Source of the DNA: Geosiphon pyriformis uo1
Taxonomy: Eukaryota > Fungi > Glomeromycota
Direction: 5' to 3'
Assembly: GCA_016748015.1 (NCBI GenBank)
Contig: JAAOMT010000577.1
Coordinates: 350,489 to 414,488 of the forward strand
Length of the DNA stretch: 64,000 nt
A model generated the notes under the pieces. The model searched no databases and was not told the origin of the DNA. It worked only from the letters and a program-made list of their open reading frames with translations. The stretch's first letter is position 1. The number at the start of each line of letters is the position of its first letter. Positions 5,022 to 52,919 of the stretch are shown here, piece by piece. Made by a program: the position numbers and the translations under genes.

Positions 5022-5031
5022 AAGGAAATTA

Positions 5032-21997: not shown

Positions 21998-21999
21998 TT

Positions 22000-27900: not shown

Positions 27901-27974
27901 TTGACATTAATCCAAAAGCAAAATGATTGCTACACTCAATAAAAAATAGAACTTTCACTATTTAAATATACTAT
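22000..27974 (+). pseudogene. gag-pol: D polyprotein: leader domain, capsid, CCHC knuckle, protease, Cys-rich domain, dUTPase, RT, RNase H
   Basis: PIVKLEKF, CHYCGKQRHLQIDC, ILDSGSAGSII, FCVDYRKLN, YLDNTNVFSKTF, TTNALGQALRAVL. Knuckle and protease read in one frame. Confidence 0.88.
25841..26235 (+). pseudogene. dut: dUTPase domain of D
   Basis: ARFNLRYP (motif I), SRSSLA (II), GIIDAEY (III), IA*AIF (IV), R...FGSM (V). One frameshift. Confidence 0.85.
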
Positions 27975-30453
27975 TGTTACTCATAGAATATAAGAAGTAT
28001 ATTAGCATATAAATTAGCCAATCAGAAGTAGGCACAGTAGATGTGAAATTCCAGAATTCCTCTTAGAAAAATTGCAGGATTCCAAGAATTTTAGAATTCT
28101 TATACAAGGAATCACAGGATTCCAGAATTCCAGGATTTCTTTCAAAAAGAATTGCAAGATTTCAGGAATTCCAAAATTCCTGGTGTAAAGAATTGAGGAA
28201 TTGAAAAATCTTAATTATGTATATATAGTGATAGAATTAGAAACAGAAAAAACAGACTTTTCAGTTTAGATTTGATCTAAGCAATCTTTCACATCACAAA
28301 TATCAATAAATAATTATTTTCTATTTCAATCCACTTTCCACTATCAACACTTTATGTTGATAATAATTCATACTTAACCACACTGGAACAATAGCTCTTG
28401 ATTATGACTATTGACAGAATACTAACTTGAAAAATTGCCTTGGCTTATTTCTTTATTTTTTTTGTTTTCTTTTATTTTATTGTTATTTTTTTTGTGATTT
28501 ATTAAATTGATTAAGAATTAAGCACTGAATTACTGATGTCAAAGATTGTCTGGTAAAAGACCTTTGCAAATGGGTAGAGCATGTAAAAGAATTACAGATT
28601 ACTTATCAGAGAATTGCTGGCCACCAAGCTGAGAAAAAAATTGATGGAATTGCAATTCTGGAAGGCTACTAAAAACAACTATTGCATTTCTGTCAATTAT
28701 ACAAAGAACTCAAAAAAAAAAATCCTTAGATACAAACCACCTTCAGTAATTAACATTATTATATCAATTAAGCACCAAGTTATGAGTTTGTTATTTGCTT
28801 TGAGACCCCAAATAATTACTTGTAATATTTGGTGCTTTCTATAAGGTATAATTCTATAGAGAACCAGTACCAACAACAATTATCCAAAAGTGGCAGAATC
28901 AGAAATCATAGAAACCAACTATTTAGAATTCACCAAATCTTTGTTTCAATAGTACAGTCAACAATTAGGATTAAACAATAACCATTTCCTAGCAGAATCA
29001 GCCTTTAACTTTTATGTCAATAATAAAATTACAGACTGCTTAGAAGGAATAGTTAACATTGAATCCGCAAGGAAAAACTTCTATACAGAATTATTTCAAC
29101 ATACCAGCTTACCAAAAAACTACAGTTTCACACCAATTATTAGAGAAATCAATCAAACCATTGAAAGGTACACACAACAACAATTTCCCATCACCTATGC
29201 AGACAAAAGCAAAGAAAGATTGCAAACACCAGTAGTAACACCAAAAAAGATACAACCACCTACTTGGAAAAAAACCAGAGTTGAATCACCAACCAATCTA
29301 TCATATCATTGTATGCCAGGAAGTGCCATTAATATCTCCTCAGTAGATGTGTCCACATTAAACATAACACCAATCTTTGGATGATTTTTATTCCAAAGTA
29401 AACAAAGAAGAACAGATTTGTTAGGACCATATGGCAAATATTTTGAAAGATTTAAATTGCAATCACCAATGCCATCAGGATATCAATCACTACTATCTCA
29501 ATCCGATTTCAGAATTTCTGACCTGTGAGAAGTAACAGAATCAAAAAAAAAAAAAAAAGAGAATCAAGAATTTACTTACCAAAACCTGATCCCAGAAAAC
29601 TCAGAAGTTGAAACCCCAAATGTTCAAACTCCACAAAATCCAAATTTAGAACATCCAGAAATCAGAACTTCAAATATTCAACTACTGCCAAATCAAAACA
29701 ATCAAAACCCTGATTTAATTAATCAACAACACATACCTCCAAAAATTGTAATTAATCAACCAGTTGAACTGATTGGCCAGCCATTACAACAACTGAATCA
29801 GCAAATCCAGCTGCTGCCAGTACTACTTCAACAATCCCAGCAGCCACTTTAACAACTACAACAATCTCAAGCACCACTACAACAACCATTAAACTTAAAT
29901 CTAATAATCTATGCTCCAATTGCCAAACTCGAGAAATTCACCAGCAAAAAGAATGATGCCCAAGCATGGATCAATGATGTTGCAAAAGTCATCACTGCTA
30001 ATAATTGGGATGATGTCAGAGTACTTCAAATGATTCCATACATCTTGCCAATTCCTGGTATTAAAGCTTAATCAATAAACTAGTCAACTTTGACACATTC
30101 AAAACAGAGTTTTTGAAATACTTTAGCAACAATAATAGTATCAATTGCCTGGCCAACACTTTTACCATCATGAAACAAGAGAAAACTGAAACAGTCACTA
30201 CATACTTAGAATGCTTCTATAGAAATCTGTGCCAAATTTAGACAATTCAAGCTGACTATTTTATAGTGCCACAGATTCCAAATTGAAACAATTTAGTGAT
30301 TCAATCAATCAAAAATTAGAAGGATACTTAGCTAACAATCATGCAATTTATTAGCCACCACAATAACACAATAATATAAGAAATACAAATCATTTCCAAA
30401 ATCAGTTATGTCTATTATTATCATCAAGTCAGCCGTGGCAGCCTGAAACACAT
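27975..30453 (+). mobile_element. Family A element E: 5' LTR (27975-28827), PBS (28830-28837) and gag; truncated by element B
   Basis: LTR starts TGTTACTCATAG and ends TAATA, followed by TT-TGGTGCTT. Gag YAPIAKLEKF...FSNNNSINCLANTF. Ends at PETH, just before the knuckle. Confidence 0.9.
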
Positions 30454-31460
30454 TGTTACCAGATGAAATTAGAGATATTATTTAGCATGAAATTATCTTT
30501 ATAATTTCTATCATTAATTAGCATATATTATCATTTCAAATTATTACTTATTACATTAGCAAAATGTCCGAAATTATCATTTAATTAATAACCCAATTTG
30601 TACATAACACAAATGTAACCTAATTGCAATAATCAATCATATAATACCCCAAAATATGTAACATTCAAAAGTTCGCCAAAATTTGTAGAAATTTGCTGAA
30701 ATAATTGATAGTTCACCAAAATATCTAATAGTTCACCAAAATATCTAATAGTTCGCAGAAATAACTTGTAGTTTGCCAAAATGTATCTTTAGTTTAGTGA
30801 AATTGTAGAAAAGAGCAAAGTTCAAGTTTATGGAATAGTGTTACAACAAGTTGTATAAAAAAAAAGCTTTTCTCTTCAAGAAAATATATCTTACTTTAGA
30901 TTTATTATTTAGAACTATTCTTACACACACAAAAAGAAATAAAATATCAAATAATTCGAAAAACCAATTTTTTTAAAATATTGCACTTGGAAAATCTCCA
31001 AAAAACCCAACTAACATTTTAAAATTAATTAGCTACCAATTTCAGTAAACTGTTAGTGACTCTAGACCTGGATAGAAAATCTTTCCCTTGACAAAATTCT
31101 ATTTCTTTTATATTTCTTTTATTTTTTTTCTTTTATTTTCTTATTATAATCATTAGGGTAGCCTACAGACAAGATTCTTGTAGAAGAATTGACTTTCACA
31201 GCAAAGTAACTACACATTTTTAATGAGCTTCCAGACAAGCAATTCCTGGGAAAGAGTTGACATTTACTACAATGTAACTACATGAAGCAACTGGCATGGA
31301 ATTGGCCATTCCACTTATAAGCCCAGCAGTTCAAATTATAGGAGATAATTTAAAGATAAAATTCAGTTATTGGAGGTTCAAACACTTCCCATAGTCGTAA
31401 ATTAACAGCACTACAACAAACATACGAAAGCTAAGAAGAGACCAAAAACCTTCAGTAACA
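30454..31460 (+). repeat. 5' LTR of B
   Basis: TGTTAC...GTAACA, 1007 bp. ~20-bp tandem units at ~30670-30810, one more unit than in the 3' LTR. TATAAAA at ~30854. Confidence 0.95.
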
Positions 31461-31462
31461 TT

Positions 31463-31470
31463 TGGTGCTC
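31463..31470 (+). promoter_or_regulatory. Primer-binding site TGGTGCTC, complementary to a tRNA 3' end GAGCACCA (tRNA-Ile(UAU)-like)
   Basis: Lies 2 nt after the LTR end. Same motif at the same offset in D, E, F (49159-49166) and G (59151-59158). The tRNA identity comes from recalled eukaryotic Ile(UAU) 3' ends. Confidence 0.75.
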
Positions 31471-31505
31471 TTCTATAGAAACAACACAGCAAAAACAACT
31501 TCAAA

Positions 31506-34500
31506 GTGGTGACCACACCAGATGCAACAACTCTAGAGTATTACCAGTCAATTTACACCCACTGCAAGCAAAGATTTAACATTCCAGACGGAATTGAAGT
31601 TGTCAAGAAATCAGTATACCAATACATTGAAAACCACATCAACAATTATCTTTTTGGAAATTACAATATTTCAGAAGTTAGAAGCAACCTTTACAATAAT
31701 TTAGTACACTATTCACAGTTGGGAACTGAAGACCTTAACAGTGAAACACTTGTCACTTACTTTCAAGAACTTAATTTTAACATTATCAAGTACTGTGAAG
31801 AAACATATCTAGTATAGTCTCAATACTCTATTGATTTTGAATCAGAGACTGAAACAAGCAACAAAGGCAAACAAAAATTGAAGCAATACTCAAAAACCAC
31901 TCCAAATACTCCAATACTACTAAAAACAACTGCCAAACACTTACAAACACCTGAACAAGGAACCAGTTCAAAACTTCCACTTACTATCACACCTTTTCCA
32001 GCTTTACTTACATAAGCACAAACACCTAATTCACCCTTAAATTGATTTGCAAGACTAGAAGATTTTACATCACCCAGAAGTACCAGACAACAAAAACCCT
32101 TTCAAACTAGTTCCAATCTCCTTGACTTTCTAGCTGAAAATCAAAGTGAACACTCTGAGACAGTAGCGAATGAAGAAAACAACTCTAAAATATCTGAAGA
32201 AGAATTAATAGACAGTGAAAATGAAGAAAATGAAATAACAGCATATATCACAAAAATCCCTGAATTTAATGGAGAAGACATTGAGACCAGTTCCCAAGAA
32301 TGGCTCGACCAAGTTACTAAAGCTGGAGATGTAAATGGATGAAATGCTGCCAGAATGTTAAGAACAATTTTCTACTTTCTTAAAGAAACAGCAGGCAAAT
32401 GATTTGAAAACTCGACCACCTCTTTTAATGACTGGACAGCTTTCAAAACTGCCTTCTTAGAACAACTTACCAATAACAACACCTCAATCACATTTCAAAA
32501 TTGTTTTCACAATATCAAACAAGAGCCCTCCGAATCTGTCATGACTTATATTGGGAAATTCAACAAATTTCTCAGACAAATTTGCCAACTTGAAACTAAT
32601 GATTATTATTCCGATGCTCAAATTTTGGATCAATTTATTGCTGGTTTAAAGAATAAACTGATTAAAAAGATTCGCCCACATGTCCCAGAAGATTTAAATT
32701 CTGCCATTCAGCATGCAAAAAGATATAAAATGACCATGTAAAAAACCAATCATACAAAACTCGTAAACTTAGCCATTGGAGAGACCAGCTCAGCAGCTGA
32801 AAGGAAAATTGACCAACTCACAAAGAAAGTTGAAAACTATTTCACCAACCAACAACAACAGCAACCCCAAAGATATTAACCATCCCAAAGATAGAATCAA
32901 AACAACTTCATATCATCCTCTAATAACCAGCCTTAGAATTGTCATTACTGTAAAATTCCTGGCCACTGGAAAAGAGATTGCAGAAAGCTACAACAAGACC
33001 AACAAAACAGGAGTAATCAACATTACCTTTTACCACAACAATTTTATTACCAACCACCACTACCACCAGCTTACTATTTACCAAGACTGCAATATCAAAC
33101 CGACTACTATCAATCTGTTCCATAGCCAATGCAACAACAGTATCGACAATCTATTCAACATTACCAAGTATCTGCTTGAAGATTGGTTCAACAAAACCAA
33201 TTTGCACCACAAAACCAATTCGCAACAAACAACAATAGAATCAACCCAAATAACCAATTAGTTCTCTGAAATCCAGCTCAGCCAAGACCCACCCATTATC
33301 ATACTCAATCTAGCTATCTTACAATACTTGAAGAACAGAATTTTTACCATACTGCACTCTTGGAAGGTAGAGCTGCAGCATGACAACAAAACTCTTCCTA
33401 TACTCCTACCACAATTTCACTAGCCAGAATTGCTGAAAACGCCAACCTTTCAGATATATTCTCTTTTGAGTTTGAAGCAAATGAGTTACTATTTCTGCTT
33501 AGCAATACAGCCGCCAACGAACAAAAAGCAATCACTGCTATGTACACTGAAGCAGAAGTTAAAGAAAAGGCAATTCGCTTGATTCTAGACAGTGGATCTG
33601 CCAGAAGCATCATCACTTATTAGTTAATGCAACAGTTAAAGAGAAATGTCAACTGACCAGCTCAAACAGTAATTGTCACTGCTAATGGCATGAAAAAAAT
33701 TCCAGTAGGAGAAATTGACAATTTTCCATTCACTCTTAATGAAATCACCATTTCAGTTAAAGTTCTTGTAATGAACATGCCCCAGTATCAAGCCCTTGTC
33801 AGAAATGATTGGCTCCAAAAAGCCAATGCAAAATTAGACTGGAAAACCCAAGAATTACAACTTTCTTATCAAGGACAATATGTCCGAGTACCCACTACTT
33901 GTGGTACATTCAACAAATAATCAGAGAAAGTACCTGTCTTTAAATTTGAAGAAAAGGAAGAAAAGCCTGTAGTTGAAACATTTATGGCAATTGAATCAAC
34001 ATCTAACTGGGCTGAAGAAACTGAGCAAATGTATTTTGCAACAAACTTATATTCAGAGGAACCAGAAACTTCTGAATGGAACATCCCATATTCTAAACCA
34101 GAACCAAAGAAATGACACCCTTACATTCTGCTCAAATGCAAGGACTGCTACAAAAAACTTTTCTCAATGGGAGCCTGCATTTCATCTGAAGAAGAATATG
34201 AAAATCATACTTGTTATTACTGCAAGGCTTGCCACAGAGAACGATAGAGCCATCTAATAAAAAAAAGCGGAAAATAGGACAACACCCCTTGTTTGACTTG
34301 TGGAAATATGCTACCAGAAGAATGCATTTGGATTGATATAGCAATGAGAGGAGGAGTTTGCGATCAAACCTGCCAATATGTTTTATTAATTTCAAAAAAA
34401 GTCAAAAAAGGAACACTTTTTGATACAACATACAACAATGCTCTCAACAAACTTTATCACTACCCTCATGATGCTAAGATGATTTTCAACCTAGTAATGG

Positions 34501-37128
34501 CATTAGTTAATGGAGCTACCAAAGAAGATGTTTGTTAAATAAAAGAAGCAGAATACATTGAATACACCATGGAATTAGCTGGATTTAATTATGAAGATAA
34601 AGTAAAAATGTACTATCAAATCGCAAGTTACACCTACTTGACTAAAGAAGCTCAAGCTCAATGGCTAGAACAAATGAACATTAAATTATGTAAGGAATAC
34701 ATAATGCTTTGTGATGAACAATAGTGTTCTGAATGCTACGCTCTTAGCATTCCCTTGCCCAGCAAAAGTAATGAATACAAAATTGAATTTGGAAAACCTG
34801 AAGCAACAGAAAAAATTGAAACAACACCCATTTATCTCATCAAAAATCAGCCTGTCTTACAACTTAAATACTTCAACAACAACGGACAAAGAATAAAACC
34901 CAAAAAAGCACATGAAATTAATGCTGGATATAACCTAAGATATCCAGACAAGAATACTCTCATTCTCAAATCCAAATCTCTCACAAAAATCAACCTCAAA
35001 ATTGCTCTCAAAATCCCGCCAGGAGCAATGGTTCAAATTGCCTTCCAGTTTTTTCTGGCAAGCAAAGGAATCAATGTCAGAGGAGAAATAATCAATGCTA
35101 AATATACTGGTAACATAACAGTAATACTCCAAAATGAAACTGACAAGCCGTTTAAGATTAAACATGCTGAGAAAATTGCCCAAGCCATTTATTTACCCTT
35201 AATCAATATTTTGGGTTTACAATTAGTCAATCAAAAAGAACTATTGAGAAAAAATGAAAGAGGAACCCAAGGTTTTGGTTTAACTAGATGATTTACAGTT
35301 CCAATAAACATAGCCCTCAATGAACAGAAAGAATCTCACCAGATTTTATGACTTCTACAACCAATTACCATTTCACCCTTTGAAGAACACTCTGAAATTT
35401 ACACTTGTAAAAAGCCAACAACTACACAACAAATTTTTGAGTCCAATGAACAAATCTGCTTGGAACATAATATCTTGATCCCAAACATTTATATTCCAGA
35501 AGGAACAAAGAAAATCTGAGTTACTTTTTACAATCCCAACAATTTCCCCATAGTTTTATTAAATAACTTAGAAATTGGAGTTATTTACAGTAATATCTTT
35601 CAACAAGAATTATCCCAAACAGTCCCCAATTTCTCTGAAATTATTGAATATTTACTACCAAAAATCAACCCAAACCCAGCTCTGAAAACTACCATGTTGT
35701 CATGGAAAAACTATCTCGAATTAACATAGAACAACTTGAACCACAACAACAGAGCCAGCTCAAAGAGCTAATTGCAAAATTTGCCGATATCTTTGCTGAA
35801 AACAACAATGACTTAGGAAAAACCAATTTGGTCCAACACCAAATCTATACAGAAGATGCCAAACCAAGGTAACAGCAAGCCTACTGAGTTGCTCCAGAAA
35901 GCCACCAATTTATCTGCGAAGAAGTACAATGGATGTTCAACAATGGGCTTATCCAACCATCAATGAGTCCATGGGCCTCACTTGTGATTTTAGTTAAAAA
36001 AAAAATGGAAAGATATGATTTTGTGTTGATTATCGACAACTTAACAGTATTACCATTGGAGATGCCTACCTTTTTCCTCAAATTGATAACATGCTAGATG
36101 CTCTTGGGAAGTTCAAATACTTTTCAACATTAGATTTAGAAAGTCAATACTGGCAAGTTGCCATGGATCCCAAAGATCATCCCAAAACAGCATTCACCAC
36201 TCAAGGAGGAAATTACAAGTTCAATGTAATGTCTTTTAGATTATGCAATGCACCAGCAACATTCCAAAGACTCATGGATGTTGTTTACAAAGGTCTTCTT
36301 TGGAAATCAATAGTTGTCTATCTTAATGATACTGATGTTTATTCATCATCTTTTGAATTACACTTAAAACACCTGCACAAAGTTTTTCAACGATTATGGA
36401 AAGCAGGATTGAAACTGAACATCGAAAAATGCTACTTTGGAAAAACAAGTTTGGCCTTTCTTGGTCACATTGTTAGCCAAGATAGAATTAAACCAGACTC
36501 TGGAAAAATCAGCACTGTCAAAAACTTCAAGACTTCACAAAATATCACAGAATTAAAAAAATTTATTGGATTAGCATCCTATTACTGAAAATTTATTAAA
36601 GGATTCTCAGAAATCACAAAACCCCTTAACCAGCTTACTACTAAAAACGTTGAATACAAATGGACGGAAAAACACCAAAAAGCTTTTGAAATTCTTAAAG
36701 AAAAGCTGACAACAGCTTCAATTCTCGCCTACTCAGACTTCAGTAACCAATTTTGACTAGCTACAGATGCTTCTTATACTGCCTTTGATGCCATCTTATC
36801 ACAATTAGATAACAACAGAAACAAGCGAGTAATCACTTATGCTAGTAGAACATTAAAACCAGCTGAGAAAAACTACTCTGCCACAGAACTAGAAACAGCA
36901 GCCGTAATTTGGGCCTTACACCACTTCAACCTTTATTTCAGGCCTAAAAAATTCGACATTATCACTGATAATATTGGACTCAAATGGCTTCAAAATAAAA
37001 TCACTTAGCTGAATGCCAAACAAACCCAATAGACAGAATTTTTAGCCAACTACTAATATATTATACACCACAAATCAGGAAAACTTCATACCAATGTTGA
37101 TTGTCTTTCAAGAATGAGGCAAAATTAG
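31506..37128 (+). pseudogene. gag-pol: B ORF1: leader domain, capsid (~32235-32740), knuckle (32940-32981), protease (~33530-33900), Cys-rich domain, dUTPase, RT (~35750-36600), RNase H (~36720-37128)
   Basis: AYITKIPEFNGED, CHYCKIPGHWKRDC, LILDSGSA, LCNAPATFQRLMD, VYLND, ATDASY, NYSATELETAAVIWA. Ends ...LSRMRQN* (TAG 37126-37128). Confidence 0.92.
34896..35291 (+). pseudogene. dut: dUTPase domain of B
   Basis: NAGYNLRYP, GEIINAKYTGNI, EKIAQAIY and ERGTQGFGLT: trimeric dUTPase motifs I and III-V, with motif II decayed. Confidence 0.92.
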
Positions 37129-37174
37129 AATACAAAACCAACACCCATTTGAATTAACAACAAAACAACAAACA

Positions 37175-38560
37175 ATGAACCATGAAAACTACAACAATCT
37201 TAAACAATATTTGGAGACATTAACAATTCCAACAGATTGGTTCTCAGATAAAAAACATCAGTTACAATAACAAGCCAAACAATACTTCTTATACAACAAC
37301 ATGATTTATTATCGAAACTTCAGAAACCCAGACAATCTACTCAGATTAATACAAGAACATGAAAAAAAAACTATTTTATATAACATGCACTCAAACCCTT
37401 CATTAACACACCTAGGAAAAGACAGCACCACCCAGAGAACACTAGAATATTACTTTTGGCCTCAAATGAGAAAAAACATTCATGAATTTGTTAAGTCTTA
37501 TAATAGTTGTCAAAAAAGAAAAGGAACTCACCCTACAGAATCTTTAAATCCAATCAAAGTTGAACAGCCTTTTGACTGAGTTGGTATCAATTTAGTCGGA
37601 CCACTACTTATCACAAACCAAGGAAACCATTATATTGCAGTAGCTGTAGACTATCTCACCAAATGGCCTGAAGCCAGAGCCATTCAATAAGCAGATGCAA
37701 AATCAGTAGCAAACTTCATCTACAAAAACATTATTTGTAGACATGGATGTCCAATAAAACTTTTATCTGATCAAGGAACACATTTCGTGAACAATTTAAT
37801 CCAGGAAATTTGTGGACAATTTAATGTCAAGAGACTATTATCTTTGCTTTACCATCCACAAACAAATGGACTTGTAGAACATTTCAACAGAACATTGTGT
37901 GAATTATTAGCCAAAGTCTCAACCAATTTTGAGCAAGAATAGGATCTCTTTATTCCATCAGTGTTACTAGCATATAGAACACTAAAACAAGATATCACAA
38001 AACACATACCATTTGATTTAACCTATAGAAGGACAGCAATGTTACCAATTAGTTTCACAATGGAAACATATCCAGTACAACCAATTAATAAAGACAACTT
38101 TCAGGAAACACTACAATGAAGAGCCTATACACTGCTTAGCACATTGGAAGGAAAACGACGAATAGCAGCCACCCATATTAAATACTCCCAAGCTCAACAA
38201 AAAAAATGGCATGACAACAAATTGCCACCAATCACTAATGAATTTAAAATTGGAAACAAAGTTCTCTTACACAGAACTAAAGCTAAAAAACAATGGAGTA
38301 AAAAATTTAAAAATAAATAAGATAGACCATTTTTTATTCATAAAGTTCTAGACAACGGATTATACAAGATAAGACTTGATGACAAAATCTTAGCAAAAGT
38401 TGCACATGGAGATCATTTGAAACACTATAATTCCAGAAACAATCTTGAATCATTAATTTCACAAATTAGTATACATTCTTCTTTAATTAATCCCGAAAAT
38501 ATTCTCCAAAATTTAGAACCAATAATTGTTATTGAACAACCTCCCAACTTGAACACTTAA
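37175..38560 (+). pseudogene. int: B ORF2: stand-alone DDE integrase (HHCC, catalytic core, GPY/F-type C-terminus, no chromodomain)
   Basis: ATG 37175 to TAA 38560 is 462 codons in one net frame. H..HLG..YFWP..SCQ; DYLTKWPEA; SDQGTHF; YHPQTNGLVEHFNRTL. Internal point stops. Confidence 0.9.
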
Positions 38561-38682
38561 CTTAAATTTATTATTATAGTTATCTCCTTATAATTTAGAA
38601 ACAATCTCACAAAAACAAAGCAAAAATAACATAAAAATTCATACACCAAAAATAATTTTCTTTTATTTTTAAATCTCTTATA

Positions 38683-39401
38683 ATGACTATTCCTCAAAAC
38701 ATTCAACAATTATCTCAAAAACTAATGTTAGCTTTAAAAACAATACCCAAATTATCCATTACTGTTACTAGAAACCACATTAATTATATCTAAACAGAAG
38801 TAGTTACAAATTTAGCCCCAAATTCACAAAAATATTACCCATATAAGAAGAACACAAGAAGTTATTCTGAAATTCACCTGCCAGAACTTTTAAAGCTTGC
38901 TTTAAGGGAAAACTTAATGCTCACTTCTATTAGTATTCCACCAAATGCTACTATTCAACAAAAACTTCAACTGTGTCTTAATGAAGAAAACTACGATTAT
39001 ACTCCAATATATAGATATTTCTACATTGGAAAAACACTTCACGAATGAAAATGGAAGCTTACAGCAGCAAATCTCACAAAAAAGCTATTCGGAAACAACT
39101 TCACAATGAATTCAAGACAACAGCTGGACCTACAAACAGTTGTTATAAACTAAGAGCTGCTCTTAGACTTTATAACCTATTCCACACCTGTGAAAACGTT
39201 TTACAAAACCCAATTTTACAGCCTTTGAAGATTCAATACATTGGAAAGCTTACAGAACTGAAATTTCAACAATTTTCAGACAAAATTTCTTCAATAATTT
39301 TGGATTATTTTCTGGAAATTACAGACAGTACTTGGACTTCAACAGAGCTCAGTCTTGAAGAGGAGGTTATATTACCAGACGAAATTAGAGATATTATTTA
39401 G
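38683..39401 (+). pseudogene. B ORF3: accessory protein of unknown function (~240 aa), ending inside the 3' LTR
   Basis: ATG 38683, MTIPQNIQQLSQKLM...YRYFYIGKTLHE, a frameshift near 39050-39080, then KAIRKQLHNEF...LRAALRLYNLF...EEEVILPDEIRDII*. A homologue sits at the same position in G. Confidence 0.7.
39357..39366 (+). promoter_or_regulatory. Polypurine tract of B
   Basis: GAAGAGGAGG ending 3 nt before the 3' LTR start at 39370. Confidence 0.8.
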
Positions 39402-40355
39402 CATGAAATTATTTTTATAATTCTTATTATTAATTAGCATATATTATCATTTCAAATTATCACTTATTACATTAGTAAAATGTCCGAAATTATCATTTAA
39501 TTAATAACCCAATTTGTACATAACACAAATATAACCTAATTGCAATGATCAATCATGTAATACTCCAAAATATGTAACATTCAAAAGTTTGCCAAAATTT
39601 GTAAAAATTCACTGAAATAATTGATAGTTCACCGAAATATCTAATAGTTCACAGAAATAACTTGTAGTTTGCCGAAATGTATCTTTAGTTCAGCAAAATT
39701 GTAAAAAAGAGCAAAGTTCAAGTTCATAGAATAATGTTACAACAAGTTGTAAAAAAGAAGAGCTTTTCTCTTCGAGAAAATATATCTTACTTTAGATTTA
39801 TTACTTAAAACCATTTCTACACACACAAAAAGAAATAAAATATCAAATAATTTGAAAAACCAATTTCTTTAAAATATTGCACTTGGAAAATCTCCAAAAA
39901 ACCCAACTAATGTTTTGAAATTGATTAGCTACCAATTTCAGTAAACTGTTAGTGACTCCAGGCCTGGATAGAAAATGTTTTCCTTAACAGAATTCTATTT
40001 CTTTTACATTACTTTTATTTTCTTTCTTTTATTTTCTTATTATAATGATTAGGGTAGCCTACAGACAAGATTCCTGTAGAAAAGTTGATTTTCACAGCAA
40101 AGTAACTACACATTTTTAGTGAGCTTCCAGATGAGCAATTCTTAGGAAAAAGTTGACGTTTACTACAACATAATTACACAAAGCAACTGGCATAGAATTG
40201 GCCATTCTACTTATAAGCCCAGCAGTTCAAATTATAGGAGATAATTTGAAAATAAATTCAGTTATTAGAGGTTCAAACACTTCCCATAATCATGAATTAA
40301 TAGCATTACAACAAACATACAAGAGCTAAGAAGAGACCAAAAACCTTCGGTAATA
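39370..40355 (+). repeat. 3' LTR of B
   Basis: Direct repeat of 30454-31460, 986 bp. Ends decayed to TATTA/TAATA. Differences from the 5' LTR are mostly transitions. Confidence 0.95.
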
Positions 40356-41061
40356 CTATAGCATCCCAAAACCACAGTTTTGTCAATTTTTTTCTCAGCT
40401 TGATGGCTGGTATTCCTCCTGGTAAGCTATCCTTAATTGAGTGTTCTACCTTTATTTTTGGGTCTTTTACCAGTTACATTTATTTTGATGTCAGTACCCT
40501 GCGCATTAATCTTCAATAAAGTTAGTAAACAACAATAAAATCAAAGCAAAAAATAAAGAAAAAAAAAGAAAATAAAGAAAAAAAAGAAATAAGCCAAGGT
40601 GATTTGCAAATTAGTATTCCATGAATAGTCATGATCAAGAGCTATTGTTCCAGTGTGGTTAAGTATCAATTACTATCAACATGAAGTGTTGATAGTGGAA
40701 GTGGATTTGAGATAACAAATAGTTATTTTATTAGATGATTGTGATTTGGGGAGTTGCTTAGATTAAATCTAAACTGAGAGGTCTGTTTTTTTAATTTCTA
40801 ATACTACTGTTATATATATATAATTGAGATTCCTCAATTCCTCAATTCTTCATGACAGGAATCCTGGAATTTCTGGAATCCTGTGATTCCTTTGGGAAGA
40901 ATCCTGGAATTATGGAATCCTGCGATTCCTTATGAGAATCCTTCAATTCCTGAAATTCTGCAATTCCTAAAAGGAATCCTAGAATTTTTCATTTACTATG
41001 TCTACTTCTGATTGGCTAATAACTATGCTAATATATCTTTCCTATATTTTTAGGAGTAACA
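40356..41061 (-). mobile_element. Family A LTR (H), truncated at its 3' end by element B
   Basis: Minus-strand start TGTTACTCC at 41061, then CCAAT box, GGAATCC/GGATTCC array and TATA. Stops mid-LTR at 40356. Confidence 0.88.
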
Positions 41062-43694
41062 CTGGTTTTTTTGACTGATCTTGGTAATTGTTTCACACAA
41101 TGTTCTATTGAATTTTTCAATTAATCCATTGGTTTGTAGATGGTATAGTAATGACAATGGTCTTTTAATTCCAAATCTTTGACTTAATTCTGTCAATGTT
41201 CTATTCACAAGATGAGTTTTTTAATCTAATAGTAGTTTTTTTGGACATCTATGTTGACAGATCAAATCTTAATGAACAAATTTGACAACAAATTTTACAT
41301 CCACTCTTTGAATGGGTTTTGCTTCTGGCCATTTTGTGAGATAATTTATAACTACTGTGATATATCTGTTGCCTTTACTAGTAATTGTTAATGGTCTGAC
41401 CAAGTCAATTTCAATGCAATCAAATAGTTGTTCTACTTTAATTGGTCTCAATAGTTTACTGGGTTTTGTTCCTTCTCTTCTCTAACAAGTATCACAATTT
41501 TGAACATATTAGATAATGTCTAAATACATAGATGGCCAATAGTATCTTTTTCTGGTTCTTTTCATGGTTGTTTCTTTATAGAAATGTTCTGCTGTTGGAT
41601 CTGAGTGCATGTTAAACAATATTGTCTCTTTCTCTGGTTCTGTGATTACTTTGGTTGGTTGGTCTGAATTCTTTCTGTTCTTTTAGTAAAGTATATTTTG
41701 GTGATTGATAAAATATTTTGATTGTTGTTTTATGTTGTTTTGTTCTTTTTGAGATAATTTTTTCTTGAACAATTGAGTATTTATATAATATTAGAGTTGT
41801 TGATATTTTTGTATATTCATTTTTTTTTTGTTATATTTTTTTTTGGTTTGAAATGTTTTTTTTTAGATTTGTCTCATTCGTAACAGACCATTAGCATTTC
41901 CATTTTCTTTTCCTTTTTTTATAATGTACTGTATAATTAAATGGTGAAAGTTCTATTTTCTATCTGGCATAGTGATCATCTCCAAATTTTTGTTTCTGAA
42001 TTGAAGTTAATTCTTTAAGATCTGTATACACATCAAACTTTTGACTCAAGTATTCTTTCTATTTTATAACTGCCCAATAGATTGCTAAGTGTTCTAATAC
42101 TGGTGTTCTATAGTTTTTTTCTGCTGGATTTAAGTTTCTATTGGCATAAGCTACTAAATGTTCTCTTCCATCTGGTTCTTTCTGTAATAGTACTGCTCCC
42201 AATGCTTGGCCTGATGCATTAGTAATAATAATAAATGGTTTGCTGTAATCTGAATACATCAATACTGAAACTTAAATAAGCTTTCTTTTCAGTATGTCGA
42301 ATGCTTCTTATTGAGCTTCTGTTTATTTATACTTTATATTCTTAGTTTGTAGATGATAAAGTGGCTGTGCCAGTTTTGAAAAGTCTTTAATAAAGCAGCA
42401 ATAATATCCAGCAAATCCCAAGAATGCTCTTAGTTTTGTTAAGTTAGTTGGTACTGGAAAGTTTTTTATTATTGCAATATTATTTAGATCTGTTTTAATA
42501 CCATCTTTGCTTACAACATGTCCCAAAAATTTGAGTTCTGTTTTTCCAAAAAAACATTTGTTTGCATTCAACTTCAATCCTATTCTTCTCAATCTTTCAA
42601 ATACTTGTTGAAGATAATGTAGATGATTATCAAATGTCTTAAAGAACACATTTGTGTTATTTAAGTAAACAACTACAGATTTCCACAGTAGTCCAGTATA
42701 GACAATTTCTATAAGCTATTGGAATGTTGCTGGAACATTCATCAAGCCAAATAGCATTACTTCAAATTCGAAATTTTTTTCTCGCATTGTAAAAGCTGTT
42801 TTTTTTTTATTTTCTGGTTTCATGACTACTTGCCAATAACCACTGTCTAAATTTCGAGTTAAAAACCATTTTTTTTTTCCAAAAGCATCAAATAGTTTTT
42901 GAATTTTTGGAGTTGGGTAACTATCATCTTTGGTTACTCTATTCAGTTTCTAATAATTTACACAAAAGCAGATTTTTCCATTCTTCTTATAAACTAATAC
43001 CACTGGTAATAATCATAGACTCATTAATGACTGGATTAACCTGTTGTCAAGCATCTGATTGATTTCTTGATGAATAATCTCATGGCTAACTGATAGTACT
43101 CTGTATGCTTTCTGTTTAATTGGCATTGCATTTCCAGTCTTGATTTGATGTTGAATGATGTCAGTTCTGCCAAATTCATTTTTACTGGCAAAGATGTTGT
43201 TGAAATTGTTGAACAGCATCTTGAGTTGCATATGTTGTAGTGGGTCTAGATTTTCCAAGTTCATTTGTTCCAATTGTTCTGGTTGGAGCAGATAATATTT
43301 TTCTTGTCTATATATTGTTTGTGATGTGATATCCACATATTCACACAATTGTAAAAAGTCTGGAATGGAGTTTGGTGGTTGTTCTTCAATTTTGGTGGTT
43401 AAATATTCAATAGTGGTTTCCTCTGGTATCTTGATAATATGTTTTGTGTTGTTGTAAATGGGAATTTTGATGTAACTATGGTTTTTGGCTGGTATGTATA
43501 TATTGACTAATCCAATTTCTTCTGATTCACAAAGTGTTGCTTCTGCCTCAAAAATCTGAACTTGATCTCTTACTTTTCTCTCTATAACTACTATATATTG
43601 TTTATATAGTGAAATAGAAATTGGTTAACGGGTGGAAATAATTTCTCTCTTGTTGATAATTTTTTCCTCTGCCATATTGACTGATACATCTATT

Positions 43695-44089
43695 CTACTT
43701 ATTGATCCAAATTCTTATATCCCTCTTGCTTTTACCCTTAATTCCTTTCTGTTTCCTACTAATACTAATTAAGCTATTTTAACCAGAAACAGGAATATTG
43801 CCTGTGTTATCTTTTCATTTGGATCTATGATATATGCCTTTTCTGAATCATTTTGTAGCATAGCAATAATATTTCCTACATATTCTATGTCAATTATTCC
43901 TCCTCTGATGTTGATCCTTTTTTTGGCTAAGCTACTTCTAAATGCTAACTGAACCATTGTTGTTGCTGAAATTTCCAATGCTATTTTGAGATCAATACAA
44001 GTGTGTAAATAGGGTTCCAATTTGATAGAATCTTTTCTGGAATATCTCAAATCAAACTCTGCATTAGTATCATGCACATATTCTGGCAT
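43695..44089 (-). pseudogene. dut: dUTPase domain of F
   Basis: AEFDLRYS, FRSSLAK, GGIIDIEYVGNI, EKITQAIF, RGI*EFGS. Confidence 0.88.
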
Positions 44090-46224
44090 AATACCTTCAT
44101 TATTATCACTGAACGACTTCAGTTCTTGCTTCTTGGTAAGATTAGGGAGTGCTATGTATTGCTCAGAGTTTAAATCTGAGTTAGAATTGTTCTGGTTATT
44201 GCTGTTATTAATTTGAATGGAGCTGAAACTGTTGTTTTTGTTATTTTCATTGTCAGAGTTTAAATTGAGATTGAAAATTGATTCTGATTCTGATACACAG
44301 CTGTTGATTGGTTCTTCCTCTTCTGAAATTGTGTAGATTATGCATGGTGGTGGATTGTAAATGAAGTCATACTCATTATAATATTGGAAGTCACATGAAA
44401 TTAAACAGTGGTCACATAGTCTTGTGTTTATTTCTTCCAGCCATTGCTTTTGTTCCTCTCTAGTGAATGCTAATTCCTGGTAGTGTTCATAGAATTGTTC
44501 TAGATCCAAGAGGTTTATGACTGGTTCTGGGTTCCAGTCAAGTTCTATGGGCTTGGAAGGGTTGTTTTTGATCATCTTTATTTCTTCTGGTGATGCTTCT
44601 TTGATTTTTGTGAGAGCCATTTGCCAAATTTCATTGTCGTCATGTGAACATCTGTTTAAGTGCTTAACTGCTCATCTCCAGACAGCATCTATGGACATTT
44701 TTTTTCTTACTCAGTCACTTATGAAAATCATGTACTGACATGATTTGTTGTATGTTCCTCCTCTTCCAGGAATGTTGTTTCACATTCTTTTATCAAGAAG
44801 AGTTTCTCTACAAGCCAAGCATGACTTATTATCTCATTTTTCCACTTTTTTTGGTCTTCCAAACCATTTGATGACACATGGATGGCAATAAAATTTAGTT
44901 GCTATTAAGTATTCTTTATCATCGCCACAATATGCACCTATTAATGACAATTTCTTGCCACAATCAATGCATATGAGCTTTGGTTAACAATAATACAATT
45001 GTGGTGGTTGAGAATAAATATATGGAGTATATATTGAAGTAGTGGCTGGTTTTGGTCTTTTCTCTTTCTCTTTTCCCTTTTTTTCACAAGTCCAAATCAG
45101 TGACTGTTTACTTTGGTTACTACTGTTCCAATAACTTTGATTGGTTTCCCTGGTAAGTTCTTCTTCTCTTCTTTTCTTCCCTTTGTCATCCCATGATGGT
45201 ATTGGCAATAGTTTGTTGTGTTCAGTGTTGGCCCAAGAAACTTAGTAGACTTTCCAGATAGGTTTTCTTTCTTTTTTTTCTAACTTGATGAGTGGTACTG
45301 AGGGTGTGTTATTAGGCTTGAAGTGGCCACACATGGTTGGTACACATGTGTGTCAACTGTTTTGGCTAAGCTATAGCTCTTGGGTGTTCCAATCAAGCAT
45401 TTTATTGATTTTGAACAGCCAGTTGTTGTTTACAAGTGCTTGGTACTGGATGGCTTCCATGACTAATACTTTGATTGATATAATAATGCTGTTAACTTCA
45501 ATGGACAAGTCATCTATTTCACCAATTGGAGTTTTGGTAGCTCCATTAGTGGTAATTATCTTTGTACTGGCAGCTTGATTAACTCGGCAACCTAATTGGT
45601 CCATGAGCTGTCTTGTAATAATACTGTCAGCTGATCTACTATCTAAGATTAGTTTGATGGAATGACCATCAATTTTACCATCCATGTACATTGCTGTAAT
45701 GAGTTTTTCTTCAAATGCAGCTCCACTAAACAAAAAGATTTCTGTTGGTTCCTTAATTTTAAAGAAAAATATAGCTGCAAGTGACTCATCTTCCATGATG
45801 GTGGCTGGTGAAATGTTGCTGGTAATTGTTGGTTGTTGGTTGGTTTCCAGGTTATTGGGTTGGACATCTTCTAGAGTAATCAGAAGACTTAAATAGTGTT
45901 AGAAATTTGGGTTTTGGGTGTGCCTGGTGCCCGAATTCCATTGTCAAAATCCTGATCGCTGGGTTGAGGAACTGGGAATCAGTTGATGGACTACCATTGA
46001 CAATCTTCAACTCTGTTGTATCAGTTTTGGCCTTTGAATTCCATTTTGAGGTAAGTTTTGTGGCGGTGTTTGAATTTGTTGGGGTTGATAGATTATTTGA
46101 GGCTGCAGTTAATAGATAGGCTAGAACGCAGGTAATAAATTACTAGTGTTGTCAGCTAATAAACTGGTGGTTAATAAATTGGCTGTTGTATCATAGGTAG
46201 ATAATTCAGTTGATATTGTTTAAG

Positions 46225-47284
46225 TGTTACCAGAGGTTTTTGGTCTCTTTTCTTAAATGTTGTTAATGTTGATTTGCTGTGAATTCATATTTCTAGAAAG
46301 TAGTTGGATCTTCAGTAACTGAATTTATCTTTAAATTATTTTCTATAATTTGAATTGCAGGGCTTATAAGTGAAATAGCCAATTCTATGCCAGTTACTTT
46401 GTGTAGTTATGTTGTAGTAAACATCAACTCTTTCCTAAAAATTGCTCATCTAAAGCTCACTAGAAATGTAGTTACTTTGCTGTAAAAGTCAACTCTTCTA
46501 CAGAAATCTTGTCTGTAGGCTACCCTAATAATTATGATAAGAAAATAAAAGAAAAATAAAAGAAATGTAAAAGAAATAGAATTTTATCAAGGAAAACGTT
46601 TTCTATTCAGGCCTAGAGTCACTAACAGATTACTGAAATTGGTAGCTAATCAATTTTAAAATGTTAGTTGTGTTGAAAAAATTTCAAGTGTAATAATTTT
46701 AAAGATTTGGTTTTTGAATATTTTAATTTTTATTTGATTTTGTAAAAGGTAATTTGTTCTAATTAAGATATTTGAAGTAAGTTACTATGGTAAGATACTA
46801 TGAAAAAATACTAGGAGAAAATATTAGGAGAAGATACTAGAAAAAATACTAGGAGAAGATATTAGGAGAAGATACTAAGAAAAGATACTAGGAAAAGATA
46901 CATTTTTTTAAAGAGAGAAACTTTTCTTTTATACAACTTGTTGTAGTACTAGTTTTTGAACTTGCACTTTTCTTTTTGCTACAATTTGGGTGAACTAAAA
47001 ATACATTTTGGTGAACTACAAGTTATTTCACTGAACTATTGATTATTTTGGCGAATTTTCATTAATTTTGGCAAATTTTGACTATGTTAAATGATTCAGG
47101 ATATTGTGTAATTTGATCATCTTAATTTCTAAAATACAAATCGGATTATTGATTAAGTAATAATATTTGATAATTTGATTAAATAATAAGTGATAATCGA
47201 AATAATAATGATATATGCTAATTAATAATAGAAATTATAAGGGTAATTTTATGCTAATTAATAGCTAAAATTCTACTGGTAACA
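46225..47284 (-). mobile_element. Solo LTR, family B' variant, inserted in the gag region of F
   Basis: TGTTAC/GTAACA ends; aligns with 5032-5972 and 30454-31460. F sequence is continuous across it. Flanks TAAG/TTGG match only partly. Confidence 0.9.
46792..46901. repeat. 13-bp tandem repeat (AAGATACTAGGAG, ~8.5 copies) inside the solo LTR
   Basis: Units readable directly. This expansion is absent from the other three B LTRs. Confidence 0.85.
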
Positions 47285-50200
47285 TTGGTAATTGATTACT
47301 AATGTAATTTTGTGATTGTAGTTGGCAATTGGAGTTTTGATACTAATTAGCTAATCTTAAGTTGCTTATCTTTTTTCAGCATTCAAATTGTAAATGTCCT
47401 TGTTTACCACAATAGTGGCATACACACATTTCCTGTTGCCACTGTTGATTGGTTGACAATACTGAACGCAATTGATTTTGGGCACAATTTGAGTTTTCTT
47501 GATTATTGTGTCATTGGGGAGATTGATAAATTGCACAATTGTCAGTTAAGTATCCCTCTAATTTCTGATTGATTGAATCACTGAATTGTTTTAGTTTAGA
47601 ATTCAAGTCAGATAATCAGTTCATTACTAGATTTATGGCTTGAGCATAATTAGCTTTTAATTCAGCTGATTCAAAGTCTCTGGCACATGTGACTGCATCT
47701 TGTAAGTTGTTTGAATATAGTGGTCATATGTATTGCAAGATGCTACTGCATAATCTGCAAATAAACTGATTTAGGATCTGGGCTGCAGTGAAATAATTGG
47801 TATTGATTGCTTGTATTTGTTGCAGATTCTAGTAGAAACATCCCAAGTAAATAGTAACTACTTTAGTGTTTCTTTGTTTAATTGTAATAAAAGTATTGGC
47901 TAAATGGTTGATGCTATTGCTGTTACTAAAAAATCTTAAAAATTCCAATTTAAATGCATTAAATGTCTGGGGTTTCTGAGCTAAGCTATAATACTATGAG
48001 TTGGCAGCATTCTAAAGAAAATAGGAGATTGCTTAAAAGATTCTGACATCATTCCAATTATTGGTGGTGATGGCTTTAGGGACGTCACTGATCCATGTTT
48101 GGGCGTCATCTTCTTTGCCAGAAAATTTTTCAATTTTGGCAATGGGTACATATGCCATTGGTACTACTGGTAGTTGTAGTTGCAGTTGTGATTGTTGTTA
48201 TAGTTGTTGTTGTAGTTGTTGTTGTAATTGCTGCTGAAGTAGTAATTGTGGCTGTTGCTATTGTTGTTTGTCAATTGGTAGAGCTGGTAGTGGATTAATC
48301 ATGATTTCTAGAGGTAAATATTATTGATTATTAATGTTGGGGTTTTGATCATTCTGGTTTTTTGGAGTTTGATTAACCAGAGTTCCAATTTCTGGGTTTT
48401 TTAGGATTGTGTTTTGGTTATTATTTTCCTGATTGCTACCTTTTTTTTCTTTAGAGTCAGTTATTTTTCAAGGACTAACAGCTCCGAAATCTGGTTGTGA
48501 TAGTGGTAATCAAATTTCTATTGGCATTGAGAAACGCGATTTAAATCTCTCAAAGTAATTGCTGTATGTTCTTAGTAATTCTGTTTTTTTTTGTTTACTT
48601 TGGAACAAGATCTTGTTTAATAGTGTTGTTGCATTTGTAGTGGACGTGCTGGTTGATATTATATTAATAGTGCTTCTAGGTGTATGATGATATAATGAAT
48701 TGGCAGGTGAATCAAATCTTTGTTTCTTTCAAGTAGATAGTTGGATTTGTTTTGGGGTTTCTGCTGATGTTTGTAGTCTTTCTTTTCCTTTATCAGCAAA
48801 CATGATAAAAAATCTTTGTTTGGTGTATTTTTCAATTTCCCTGTTTATTTCTGTGATTAGTGGTATGAATAAATAGTTTTATAGAAGAGTAGTGCTTTGG
48901 AGTAGTTTACTGAAGAAATTGTTGAAGGCAGATTCTAGATCTTCTTGGCCTTCTAAATGATATACAATTTTCTTGTTAATATAGCAATTGAAAGCTGATT
49001 TTGTTGGCCAACTATTATTTGTTAATTCAAAATGGATGTGATAATGTTGGAATAAAAATTTTGCAAATTCCAAATGGTTTGTTCCTATTTCTTCGGATTC
49101 TGCTACTATTTAGATAAAATTGTTGGTGCTGGTTTTCTGTAAAATTATATCTTACAGAAAGCACCAAATGTTACAAGTGATTATTTAGAGTCTCAAATCA
49201 AATAACAAACTTGTAACTTGGTGCTCAATTGATAAATGCTGTTAATATCTGAAGGTTTTGTAGGAGAGTTCTTTGTATAATAAACAGAGATTCAATAATT
49301 GTTTTTAGTAGTCTCCTGAAATTACAATTCTATCCAATTTTTTTCTTAGTGTGGTGGCTGGTAATCTTGGCAGAGATGCCTTTCTGGTAAGCTATCCTTA
49401 AATTCTCAATTCCTATATCTTTCCTTTGGGGTCTTTTACCAGGCTATTCTCAATATTAATAATTCAGCACTTAATCTTCAATTAATTAGTAAAACAAAAA
49501 AAATAACAAAAATAAAAAAAAATAAGAAAAAATAAGCCAAGACAATGAATGTTAGTATCCCATCAATAGCCATAATCAAAAGCTATTGTTTTAGTGCAGT
49601 TAAGTATCAATTATTGTCAACATAAAATGTTAATAATAGGAAATAGATTTGTAATATTATATAATTATTTATTGATATTTGTGAGGTGGAAGGTTGCTTA
49701 GATTAAATCTAAACTGAGAAGTCTGTTTTTTCTACTTCTAATGCTACTGCTATATATATATAATTGAGATTTCTTAATTCCTCAATTCTTCACACCAGGA
49801 ATCCTAGAATTTCTGAAATCCTGCAATTCTTCTGAGAGAAATTCTGAAATTCTAGAATCTTGTAATTCCTTGTATGAGAATTCTGAAATTCCTAGAATCT
49901 TGCAATTCCTTTGAGAAGAATCCTGGAATTTCACATTTACTATGGCTACTTCTGATTGGCTAATTTATATGCTACTATACTTCCTATATTCTATAAGTAA
50001 CACTATAACTTGGTGTTCAAGTGTTATGACAGTTGATAATATCTGAAAGTGTTGTGATCTAAAGGTTTTGGTTATTTGAAGATTTGGTTATCTGAAAATT
50101 TTGGTCATCTAAAGGTTTTGGTTGAGTTTTTTGTATAATAGACAGAAATTTAATTGATAGTTTTATCTGTAGCTTTCCAAAACTACAGTTTCATTAATTT

Positions 50201-50839: not shown

Positions 50840-51503
50840 TTATTCTTTTCTTTTAATATTGAGCTTTATCAAGATCTTCTAATTTTACTTTTCTGTCTTT
50901 GAATATTTCCTAAACCTCTTTTTCTAGAATTATTTGAGTTATCTTGTTCTGTAATTTTTCAAATTGGACATTGATTATTTTTTTCATTTGGTTAATGATA
51001 ATAGTGTCCATTGCTGAATTGAATAAAATTTCTAGTCAGTCTTAAAATCTAGTGTATAGCCGATAAATGGCTCTTGTTTGTGTAATTAAATTGTTCTTCT
51101 CCACAAATAGTTTCAGTTGTTACAGTATTGTTGTGTCAAATAATTATTTTGTTTTATTCATGTATAAATTCTGAATGTTTAAGTATTGTCTTAAGCAAAA
51201 GTAACAAAAGTTTCTTGGAAATTGTTGTATCTACCAATTTCAAGTTTCAATAGTTAAATCTTAATATTGGGTGACTTTTGGTTGTGCTTTTATTGCCAAT
51301 TTTACTTTTGTGATTATTTTGTCAACTGTGTTTTCTGTTTTTCTCCGTACTTTATCTTGTAATTTTTTTCTGGTGTTTTTGTATCTGATAGTTTGTTAAT
51401 TGATTGTAATTTCTATTTTTTGTTGTTGAATCAATTGAAAGAGTTGTTGTGCTAATAAGTGGATGTTGTTAGTAATCTCCATTTTTCTACTATCTTTTGT
51501 CAT
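50840..51503 (-). pseudogene. G ORF3: accessory protein homologous to B ORF3; end approximate
   Basis: ATG at 51503 or 51482. MEITNNIHLLAQQLF...FCYFCLRQYL...TRAIYRLYTRF...KKIINVQFEKLQNKITQII. Stops and frameshifts present. Confidence 0.65.
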
Positions 51504-51542: not shown

Positions 51543-52919
51543 TTATGTGTTTGGTTTAATAATTATGATTGGTTCTAAATCTCATGGAATCTTATCTGGT
51601 TTGACTATTATTCTCTGTACTCCCAATTGTAGAATATTACTGGTGGATGATGATATTATATGGTAGTATGGTTTTAGTTAATCACTATGTACTGCTTTGG
51701 TTAAAATTTTGTTGTTTAATTTTAATTTATAAGCTCCATTTTCTAAAATTTCTTCTATGTGAAATGGTTTATCCTATTTGGAGTCAAATTTTCTACTCCA
51801 TTGTTTTTCTGCTTTGATATGATGTAGAAGTACTTTGTCTCTAATCTTGAATTCAATTGGTTTCTCTGGTAGTTGGTTATTATGTCTTTTTTTTGTTTTT
51901 CTTGTGACTTTTGGATGTTATCAGCTGCTCTTTGCCATTTGTTTTCTAGTGTTTCCATTAAATCATATGTTCTTTTAAGCAGCATTTCCTAAAAATTGTC
52001 TTCAGTTATTGGTTCTGTTGGATATGTGTTGACTTCTATCTCAATTGGTAATGTTGCTGTTCTACTATATATTAATTCAAATAGTGTTGCTTGTGTAGTG
52101 TCTTGTTTCATTGTCTGATAAGCAAATAGTACTGATGGTATAAACAAATTTCATTTGTCCTAGGTTTTTTTGGCTGATTTTGGCAATTGTTTTACACAAT
52201 ATTCTGTTAAATTTTTCTACTAGCCTATTGGTTTGTAAATAATATAGTAATAATAATGGTCTTTTTATCTCAAATCTTTGACTTAATTCTGTCAATGTTC
52301 TATTCACAAAGTGAGTTCTTTGATCTGATAATAGTTTTTTTGGACATCTGTGTTGATAGATCAAATTTTGATGGATGAATTTGGCAATAAATTCTGTATT
52401 TGCTCTTTGAATGGCTTTTGTTTTTGGCCATTTAGTAAGATAATCTATGGCTACTGTAATATATCTGTTGCCTTTGCTATTGATTTTTAATGGTCTAACT
52501 AAATCAATTCTAATACAATCAAATAGTTGTCTTATTTTGATTGGTCTCATTAGTTTACTGGGTTTTGTTCCTCTTTTTCTCTGACAAGCATCATAGTTTT
52601 GAACATATTAGATGATATCTGGATACATTGATGGTTAATAGTATCTTTTTCTGGTTTTTTCTATGGTTGCTTCTCTGTAAAAATGTCCTGCTGTTGGATC
52701 TGAGTGCATGTTGAATAATATTGTCTCTTTTTCTGGTTCTGTAATTACTCTGGTTGGTTGATCTGAATTTCTTTTGTTTTTCTGGTAAAGTATATTTTAA
52801 TAGTTGATAAAACATTTTGATTGTTGTTTTATGTTATTTTGTATTTTTTGAAATAATTTCTTCTTGAACAATTGGGTATTTATATAGTGTTAAAGTTGTT
52901 GGTATTTTTGTATATTCAT
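51543..52919 (-). pseudogene. int: G ORF2: stand-alone integrase
   Basis: ATG 52919 MNIQKYQQL to TAA 51545-51543, 459 codons net. DLVRPL, DYLTKWP, SDQRTHF, QTNRLVEKFNR. Confidence 0.88.

Follow-up and report, generated by a model that had tools for sequence, protein, structure and literature searches.

Third open reading frames are well known in LTR elements, and HIV nef and foamy-virus tas/bel2 adjoin or cross the polypurine tract (PPT) and U3, as does the frame described here; neither gave a sequence or fold match to it, and the likeness is one of position only. In bdelloid rotifers, ORF3s likewise follow pol on the sense strand, across several lineages and together with a dUTPase (PMC5408684). 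They are Env-like proteins, GDSL esterases or DEDDy exonucleases, whereas our ORF3 matched nothing in Pfam and shows no conserved catalytic residues. In fungi, Gypsy elements can carry a dUTPase between protease and reverse transcriptase (PosPlaTy3-5), and some are drawn with an 'add. ORF' of unknown function (PMC2864245), which may or may not correspond to ORF3; those elements belong to chromodomain-bearing clades of other fungi. VANC of the VANDAL transposons (PMC5735166) is an accessory protein of transposable elements whose repeats differ between related elements in a methylating host. It belongs to plant DNA transposons, and no sequence link between it and ORF3 was found. The CERV protein of Cer1 is an orphan nuclear LTR-element protein with two domains without a close solved fold; it has 517 aa (PMC10309623), is spliced, shares exons in frame with gag and is nematode-specific, in contrast to ORF3, which has 209–239 aa and follows integrase. 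Finally, the bacterial domain DUF1016_N (PF17761) is mainly helical and shows a similar order of motifs over ~65 residues, but is normally fused to a PD-(D/E)XK nuclease (PMC1189080); ORF3 lacks this nuclease and stays below every threshold.

Outside Repbase, the Geosiphon genome papers, Additional file 1 of PMC2864245 and the transposable-element library of PMC11952901, the literature searched contained no description of the B/G-type non-Env ORF3 family.

Element B and the gene behind its integrase

The window, by which we mean the whole 64,000-nucleotide stretch of DNA analysed, is a nest of decayed LTR retrotransposons. One of these, element B, spans 30454–40355 and encodes gag, protease, dUTPase, reverse transcriptase (RT), RNase H and integrase (Pfam on read-through frames) in the Ty3/gypsy order, gag being followed by PR-RT-RH-INT. 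The features of B, the corresponding features of element G and the readable RNase H/integrase junctions are:

30454..31460, forward: 5′ LTR of element B (TG...CA), from LTR pairing
31463, forward: likely (putative) primer-binding site of B (TT-TGG after the 5′ LTR)
32211..33098, forward: gag of B with six stops (Pfam: Retrotrans_gag, E 1e-9; zf-CCHC)
33351..35399, forward: aspartic protease, Cys-rich stretch and dUTPase (E 1e-15) of B (Pfam)
35750..37128, forward: reverse transcriptase and RNase H of B, terminal stop at 37126–37128 (Pfam)
37126–37175, forward: RNase H/integrase junction of B
37175..38560, forward: integrase of B, separately framed and started by its own ATG (H2C2, rve, weak Tf2-type SH3)
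38683..39401, forward: ORF3 of B, a pseudogene; 239 codons in intact relatives
39357..39366, forward: polypurine tract of B, GAAGAGGAGG, within the ORF3 coding sequence
39370..40355, forward: 3′ LTR of B, containing the last 10 ORF3 codons
39608–39678: 20-bp tandem array in the 3′ LTR of B
51543..52919, reverse: integrase of G, in a frame different from that of RT-RNase H (54103–52988)
near 52988–52919, reverse: RNase H/integrase junction of G
50853..51503, reverse: ORF3 of G, a pseudogene of 216 codons interrupted by nine internal stops; its natural stop immediately precedes the PPT
50840..50852, reverse: polypurine tract of G
50839, reverse: start of the 3′ LTR of G, with a 40-bp tandem array at 50602–50767
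near 41906–41841, reverse: RNase H/integrase junction of element F
772–799 of metagenome contig L001: RNase H/integrase junction

Element B has paired LTRs, a candidate primer-binding site and a PPT; the ends of the 3′ LTR are mutated to TA...TA. Over 984 compared positions, the LTR pair showed 905 matches and 79 mismatches, 75 of which were transitions. No target-site duplication was found, the flanks CACAT (30449–30453) and CTATA (40356–40360) being different; as the two flanks belong to different neighbouring elements, a rearrangement after insertion is suggested. The B integrase gave no Pfam match to a chromodomain. Between protease and dUTPase, a Cys-rich stretch (~34100–34750, forward) with several CxxC pairs and no Pfam match is possibly an unnamed zinc-binding domain.

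Both in B and in G, ORF3 sits between a Ty3/gypsy integrase and the 3′ LTR, the ORF3 ATG of G following about 40 nt after the end of integrase. The B frame begins with the ATG at 38683 and stops at 39399–39401, 32 nt inside the 3′ LTR, and thus passes through the PPT into U3, just as the sequence-only reading had it. It is interrupted by two stops, TAA at codon 37 (38791) and TGA at codon 122 (39046), and shifted by one base near 39078–39080, a site at which three contigs of run X1 carry one extra base. Because of this frameshift, the conserved blocks of B fall in two frames, and the sole ATG-started frame of at least 100 codons in the region is 39045–39401. Own-ATG ORFs of ~220–240 aa had been proposed for both elements: the ATG at 38683 and the conserved blocks stood, but neither frame is open (two stops and a frameshift in B, nine stops in G). 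All internal stops in both copies align with Gln, Arg or Trp of relatives, stop densities are similar to or above those of pol, and CpG is depleted, with observed/expected ratios of 0.24 in B, 0.04 in G and 0.21 in L001. The CpG loss and the position of the stops fit decay by cytosine methylation (C-to-T, G-to-A), as read from the sequences. ORF3 is a real third gene of dUTPase-bearing Ty3/gypsy retrotransposons, present in B as a copy that mutation has inactivated.

A further peculiarity concerns the integrase. At four of four readable junctions (B, G, F and L001), RNase H is closed by a stop, and shortly after it integrase begins with its own ATG; family C was too decayed to be counted. A stand-alone integrase ORF is unusual for Ty3/gypsy; since integrase sits behind a stop and has its own ATG, its production calls for either a second message or reinitiation. 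Co-occurrence of ORF3 with the split integrase, raised in the earlier reading, was seen in all three elements that hold both (B, G and L001).

A similar-sized region had been suspected in family C (17550–16960), but four ORF3 HMMs gave no match there. Near its 3′ end lies an 'LKPIIF' remnant (~16935–16920, reverse), which resembles the 'LEPIII' end of the B and G integrases; the region may therefore be an integrase extension, not ORF3. Elements F (41064–49335, reverse) and D (21128–27971, forward), both relatives of G, break off within or ahead of integrase and continue directly into the LTR, so that they lack ORF3. Several other structures were noted in passing. B-related LTRs, 70–83% identical to those of B, lie at 46222–47287 (reverse) and 5031–5972 (forward); one of them is inserted in element F and has a 13-bp array at 46792–46901. 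A block with 36–40% GC at ~9000–16000 (forward) seems to have been inserted into element C, which is very AT-rich; its ORF pieces (endonuclease, RT, RNase H) look like those of a LINE. The 5′ leader of G holds 17-bp tandem arrays (59240–59374 and 59745–59784) and duplicated LTR pieces (59284–60820).

Homology and relatives of ORF3

The LTRs of B and G are unrelated, as had been stated, in that blastn gave no alignment of at least 150 nt at E ≤ 1e-8. The ORF3 blocks, by contrast, align as the sequence-only reading proposed: the C-terminal half of B reached a pairwise score of 74 against G, a value attained by none of 2000 shuffles. At whole length the score was again 74, with a shuffled maximum of 16 in 300, and the N-terminal half alone was marginal (65 of 2000 shuffles reached its score). 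Clean cross-HMM comparisons without shared rows gave best scores of 22.1 and 24.6 bits between B and G, against 10.1 bits for the best of 1071 reversed or shuffled control sequences, so that the profile alignment between the two families is significant. An hhalign probability of 99.9% for B–G and the G-family matches of a large search were discounted: alignment A2 contained the window's G copy, and these results are hence not independent B–G tests.

Searches with the C-terminal half of B returned 122 proteins among 345 candidates. All 120 of the matches listed were hypothetical proteins of G. pyriformis, 24 of them of exactly 239 aa; among these same 120, the family HMM identified 29 as full length and 63 as complete from Met15 on, counts that refer to predicted gene models. 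With G, 59 proteins were found among 126 candidates, every one from Geosiphon and including a 209-aa cluster with six members. A search of 1.84 billion representatives gave 67 proteins, which include metagenomic ones as well as members of three further Geosiphon subfamilies. Twelve of the 20 proteins examined for origin came from Geosiphon and eight from metagenomes, with no named relative outside Geosiphon among these 20. As all named relatives are from G. pyriformis, this fungus is also the most likely source of the window. Altogether, there are at least five subfamilies, 15–40% identical, whose frames have 209–239 codons and the same motifs across groups, while the 239-aa and 235-aa subfamilies share 63% identity; P0031, P0126 and P0204 are intact natural copies. 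Of 234 proteins with an ORF3 domain, 16 gene models from three subfamilies have integrase sequence on its N-terminal side, and one has it on the C-terminal side. Many G. pyriformis models (P0005–P0239) are chimeras that join ORF3 to integrase, gag, protease or other repeat pieces.

A scan of metagenomes covering at least 595 stretches yielded at least one locus, L001. This 3713-nt contig carries RT-RNase H, a stop, integrase, an intact 230-codon ORF3, a PPT and the start of an LTR. Its integrase has its own ATG and one in-frame TGA, is 53% identical to that of B and 42% to that of G, and is separated from ORF3 by a 316-nt spacer; ORF3 reads through the PPT like that of B. The L001 ORF3 is 30% identical both to B and to G, and none of 300 shuffles reached either score. 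In IMG/VR, none of 162 pattern matches was confirmed as ORF3, and tblastn against plasmids and phages gave no match. Runs X2 and X3 contained 14 and 2 short contig pieces of the element, without joints. In run X2, where the element is otherwise scarcely represented, one 353-nt contig covers the C-terminal half of ORF3 (39082–39362) with 54 differences in 281 nt.

Synonymous sites of ORF3 are saturated (pS 0.70–0.75, pN 0.48–0.51), and for this reason no dN/dS ratio can be given. Between B and L001, ORF3 changes faster than integrase (pN 0.48 vs 0.29). Identities of 0.37/0.57/0.40 at codon positions 1 to 3, with position 2 above position 3, were dropped as an argument, as 11, 115 and 87 of 300 shuffles reached the pattern; the excess at the second position is largely aligner bias. 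That frame, length and motifs have been kept in lineages with saturated synonymous sites suggests that ORF3 is under constraint. We consider it nearly certain that ORF3 is a gene of these elements, that it lies between integrase and the 3′ LTR in B, G and L001, that its subfamilies are homologous and include intact copies in other places, and that it has no Env features.

Predicted structure of the ORF3 protein

A first model, built from the B family and the window's G copy, was set aside (pLDDT 48.8, best Z 5.8). The AlphaFold2 model from 30 diverse sequences had a mean pLDDT of 74.9 and a pTM of 0.61, with pLDDT 83–95 over residues 81–210. The N-terminus is modelled as a helix and hairpin (5–37, pLDDT 55–68), followed by a disordered basic linker (39–62, pLDDT < 50) and helices at 63–76, 91–99, 108–128, 133–148 and 153–167, three short ones and one at 192–228. 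ORF3 is accordingly predicted to consist of an N-terminal helix-hairpin (1–37), the linker and a compact helical core (about 90–210), and the helical third protein foreseen from the letters agrees with the mostly helical core of the model. Foldseek found no match at E ≤ 0.001 in PDB or BFVD, and the best VIA Z was 5.1, which is not proof of a new fold. Pfam, PHROGs and NCBIfam contained no match at curated cut-offs, and sequence searches of PDB gave a best E of 0.43. The predicted homodimer scored 0.09, a value that favours neither a dimer nor a monomer.

The claim that ORF3 lacks a signal peptide and transmembrane stretch and is not Env was borne out by hydropathy and sequence composition. 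No membrane segment was found (maximum 19-residue Kyte-Doolittle mean 0.27–1.04 in six of six relatives) and Cys content is 0–2, which argues against Env; Pfam scans of ORF3 matched neither an Env family nor a chromodomain, and the latter is excluded because the predicted core is all helical.

Across eight subfamily groups, R162 and F167 are conserved in 8/8, N152 and G116 in 7/8 and K150 in 6/8, B-type proteins being without K150. K150-T151-N152 directly precede helix 153–167, on which R162 lies, and conserved polar residues cluster there. No D, H or C column reached this degree of conservation across the eight groups, which argues against an enzyme. Net charge is only 0 to +8. In the linker, six of eight representatives carry an R/K/H-x2-5-PY motif, noticed post hoc, with a chance expectation of 0.6–4.7% each; it is absent from the G and P0237 groups, doubtful in P0206 and whole in 29 of 63 near-full B models. 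The rule for PY nuclear signals is R/H/K-x2-5-PY in a disordered basic segment (PMC2408616).

Proposed function and competing explanations

Nucleic-acid binding was among the functions suggested earlier, together with anti-silencing and integrase packaging or targeting, which are candidate roles only. The conserved K-T-N, the Arg and the PY-type motif support nucleic-acid binding indirectly, but no helix-turn-helix (HTH) fold matched: against HTH structures the best Z was 5.1, and the CHD1 C-terminal domain, Orc6 and sigma region 4 scored Z 4.7–4.9, within background. The K-T-N turn and the Arg resemble the phosphate-binding turn and recognition helix of HTH proteins. The ORF3 product is probably a nuclear nucleic-acid binder. 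We propose the following course. ORF3 protein would be produced separately from gag-pol and act in trans, its own ATG being reached either on a subgenomic RNA or through reinitiation. The PY motif of the linker may serve as a nuclear import signal, and the K-T-N turn together with the Arg of the following helix would contact nucleic-acid phosphates, as in HTH proteins. Its target, more tentatively, might be the family-specific tandem array in U3, so that ORF3 would bind the LTR DNA of its own element and keep it transcribed against host silencing. This LTR-binding reading was chosen because B and G, whose LTRs are unrelated, nonetheless each possess a tandem array of their own, because the elements are CpG-depleted and because VANC offers a precedent. 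The argument from the arrays is weakened by the fact that many LTRs have tandem repeats in their U3, and the low net charge, the missing K150 of B-type proteins and the patchy occurrence of the PY motif likewise count against the proposal. For the full chain, an LTR-binding activator or anti-silencer conceived by analogy, we estimate a probability of about 0.35–0.4. No result separates DNA from RNA binding, or roles at the LTR, on RNA and with integrase from one another.

The same PY motif and conserved Arg would suit RNA binding equally. ORF3 could then be an RNA-binding helper like Rev or Cer1 CERV, with integrase and ORF3 expressed from subgenomic RNAs, and would export, package or translationally control the full-length RNA. 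The separate integrase ORF at all four junctions, which demands more than one message or reinitiation, favours this explanation, as does the CERV precedent (PMC10309623). However, no splice junction was seen, the spacers before the ORF3 ATG (122, about 40 and 316 nt) share no acceptor by eye, and CERV, with 517 aa and three domains, differs from the ORF3 model; we regard an RNA helper as a rather doubtful alternative.

As to origin, ORF3 might be a captured bacterial DUF1016_N (YhcG N-terminal) helical domain, which would be compatible with DNA binding. More B members matched PF17761 than any other family (7 of 37 at E up to 1, best E 0.015), and YF-IG and RLY-F motifs paired over 64 columns in a profile alignment. 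These matches reached 15 bits against a cut-off of 32.8 and included none of 24 G members, which is noise level, while an unrelated FtsQ model scored better (E 5e-4 in 8 of 30). With an hhalign probability of 1.9 (12-sequence profile; one of 60 block shuffles scored higher) and no tblastn match in plasmids or phages, such a capture appears unlikely.

The co-occurrence with a separately framed integrase in three of three elements could also mean that ORF3 is an integrase partner, one that brings the separately made integrase into the particle or the nucleus or, substituting for a chromodomain, anchors it on chromatin. An integrase without a chromodomain match and a candidate nuclear signal in ORF3 would agree with this role. 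Three related elements do not show dependence, though, as shared ancestry explains the co-occurrence, and the faster change of ORF3 relative to integrase (pN 0.48 vs 0.29, B vs L001) speaks against partnership; we deem it quite improbable. Still less weight is given to a cell-to-cell or particle protein (coat-like or movement-like), or a toxin or competitor against other elements: the top Atlas feature match was a closterovirus coat cluster (score 0.92) and coat proteins of filamentous viruses appeared at Z 4.4–4.6, but the Atlas recognition of 2153 with 151 shared features lies below the 2300 mark, the Z values are at background and there is no membrane segment. That ORF3 is a passenger or chance frame without function for the element, as the two broken window copies with stop densities like or above pol might suggest, is hardly credible for a frame of 209–239 codons that persists with its motifs in groups 15–40% identical, whose synonymous sites are saturated, and folds confidently.

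Returning to the LTR-binding reading, a bolder version can be formulated, which we put forward as speculative and rather unlikely in its entirety. There would be a three-cistron lineage of fungal gypsy elements, composed of gag-pol without integrase, integrase and ORF3, in which ORF3 is a nuclear factor of new fold that binds the LTR repeats of its own family against methylation silencing, in a VANC-like or Tas-like manner.

Fungal gypsy elements usually count as having two genes. An ORF3 kept across lineages less than 30% identical and confidently modelled, yet without a solved relative, offers a handle on counter-measures against silencing or on RNA handling. For the annotation of G. pyriformis, it means that more than 200 'hypothetical protein' models are pieces of transposon ORF3, not host genes. 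LTR sequence makes up 41.2% of the Geosiphon genome (PMC11952901). If true, the three-cistron, anti-silencing plan would go some way towards accounting for the spread of LTR elements over ~41% of this genome.
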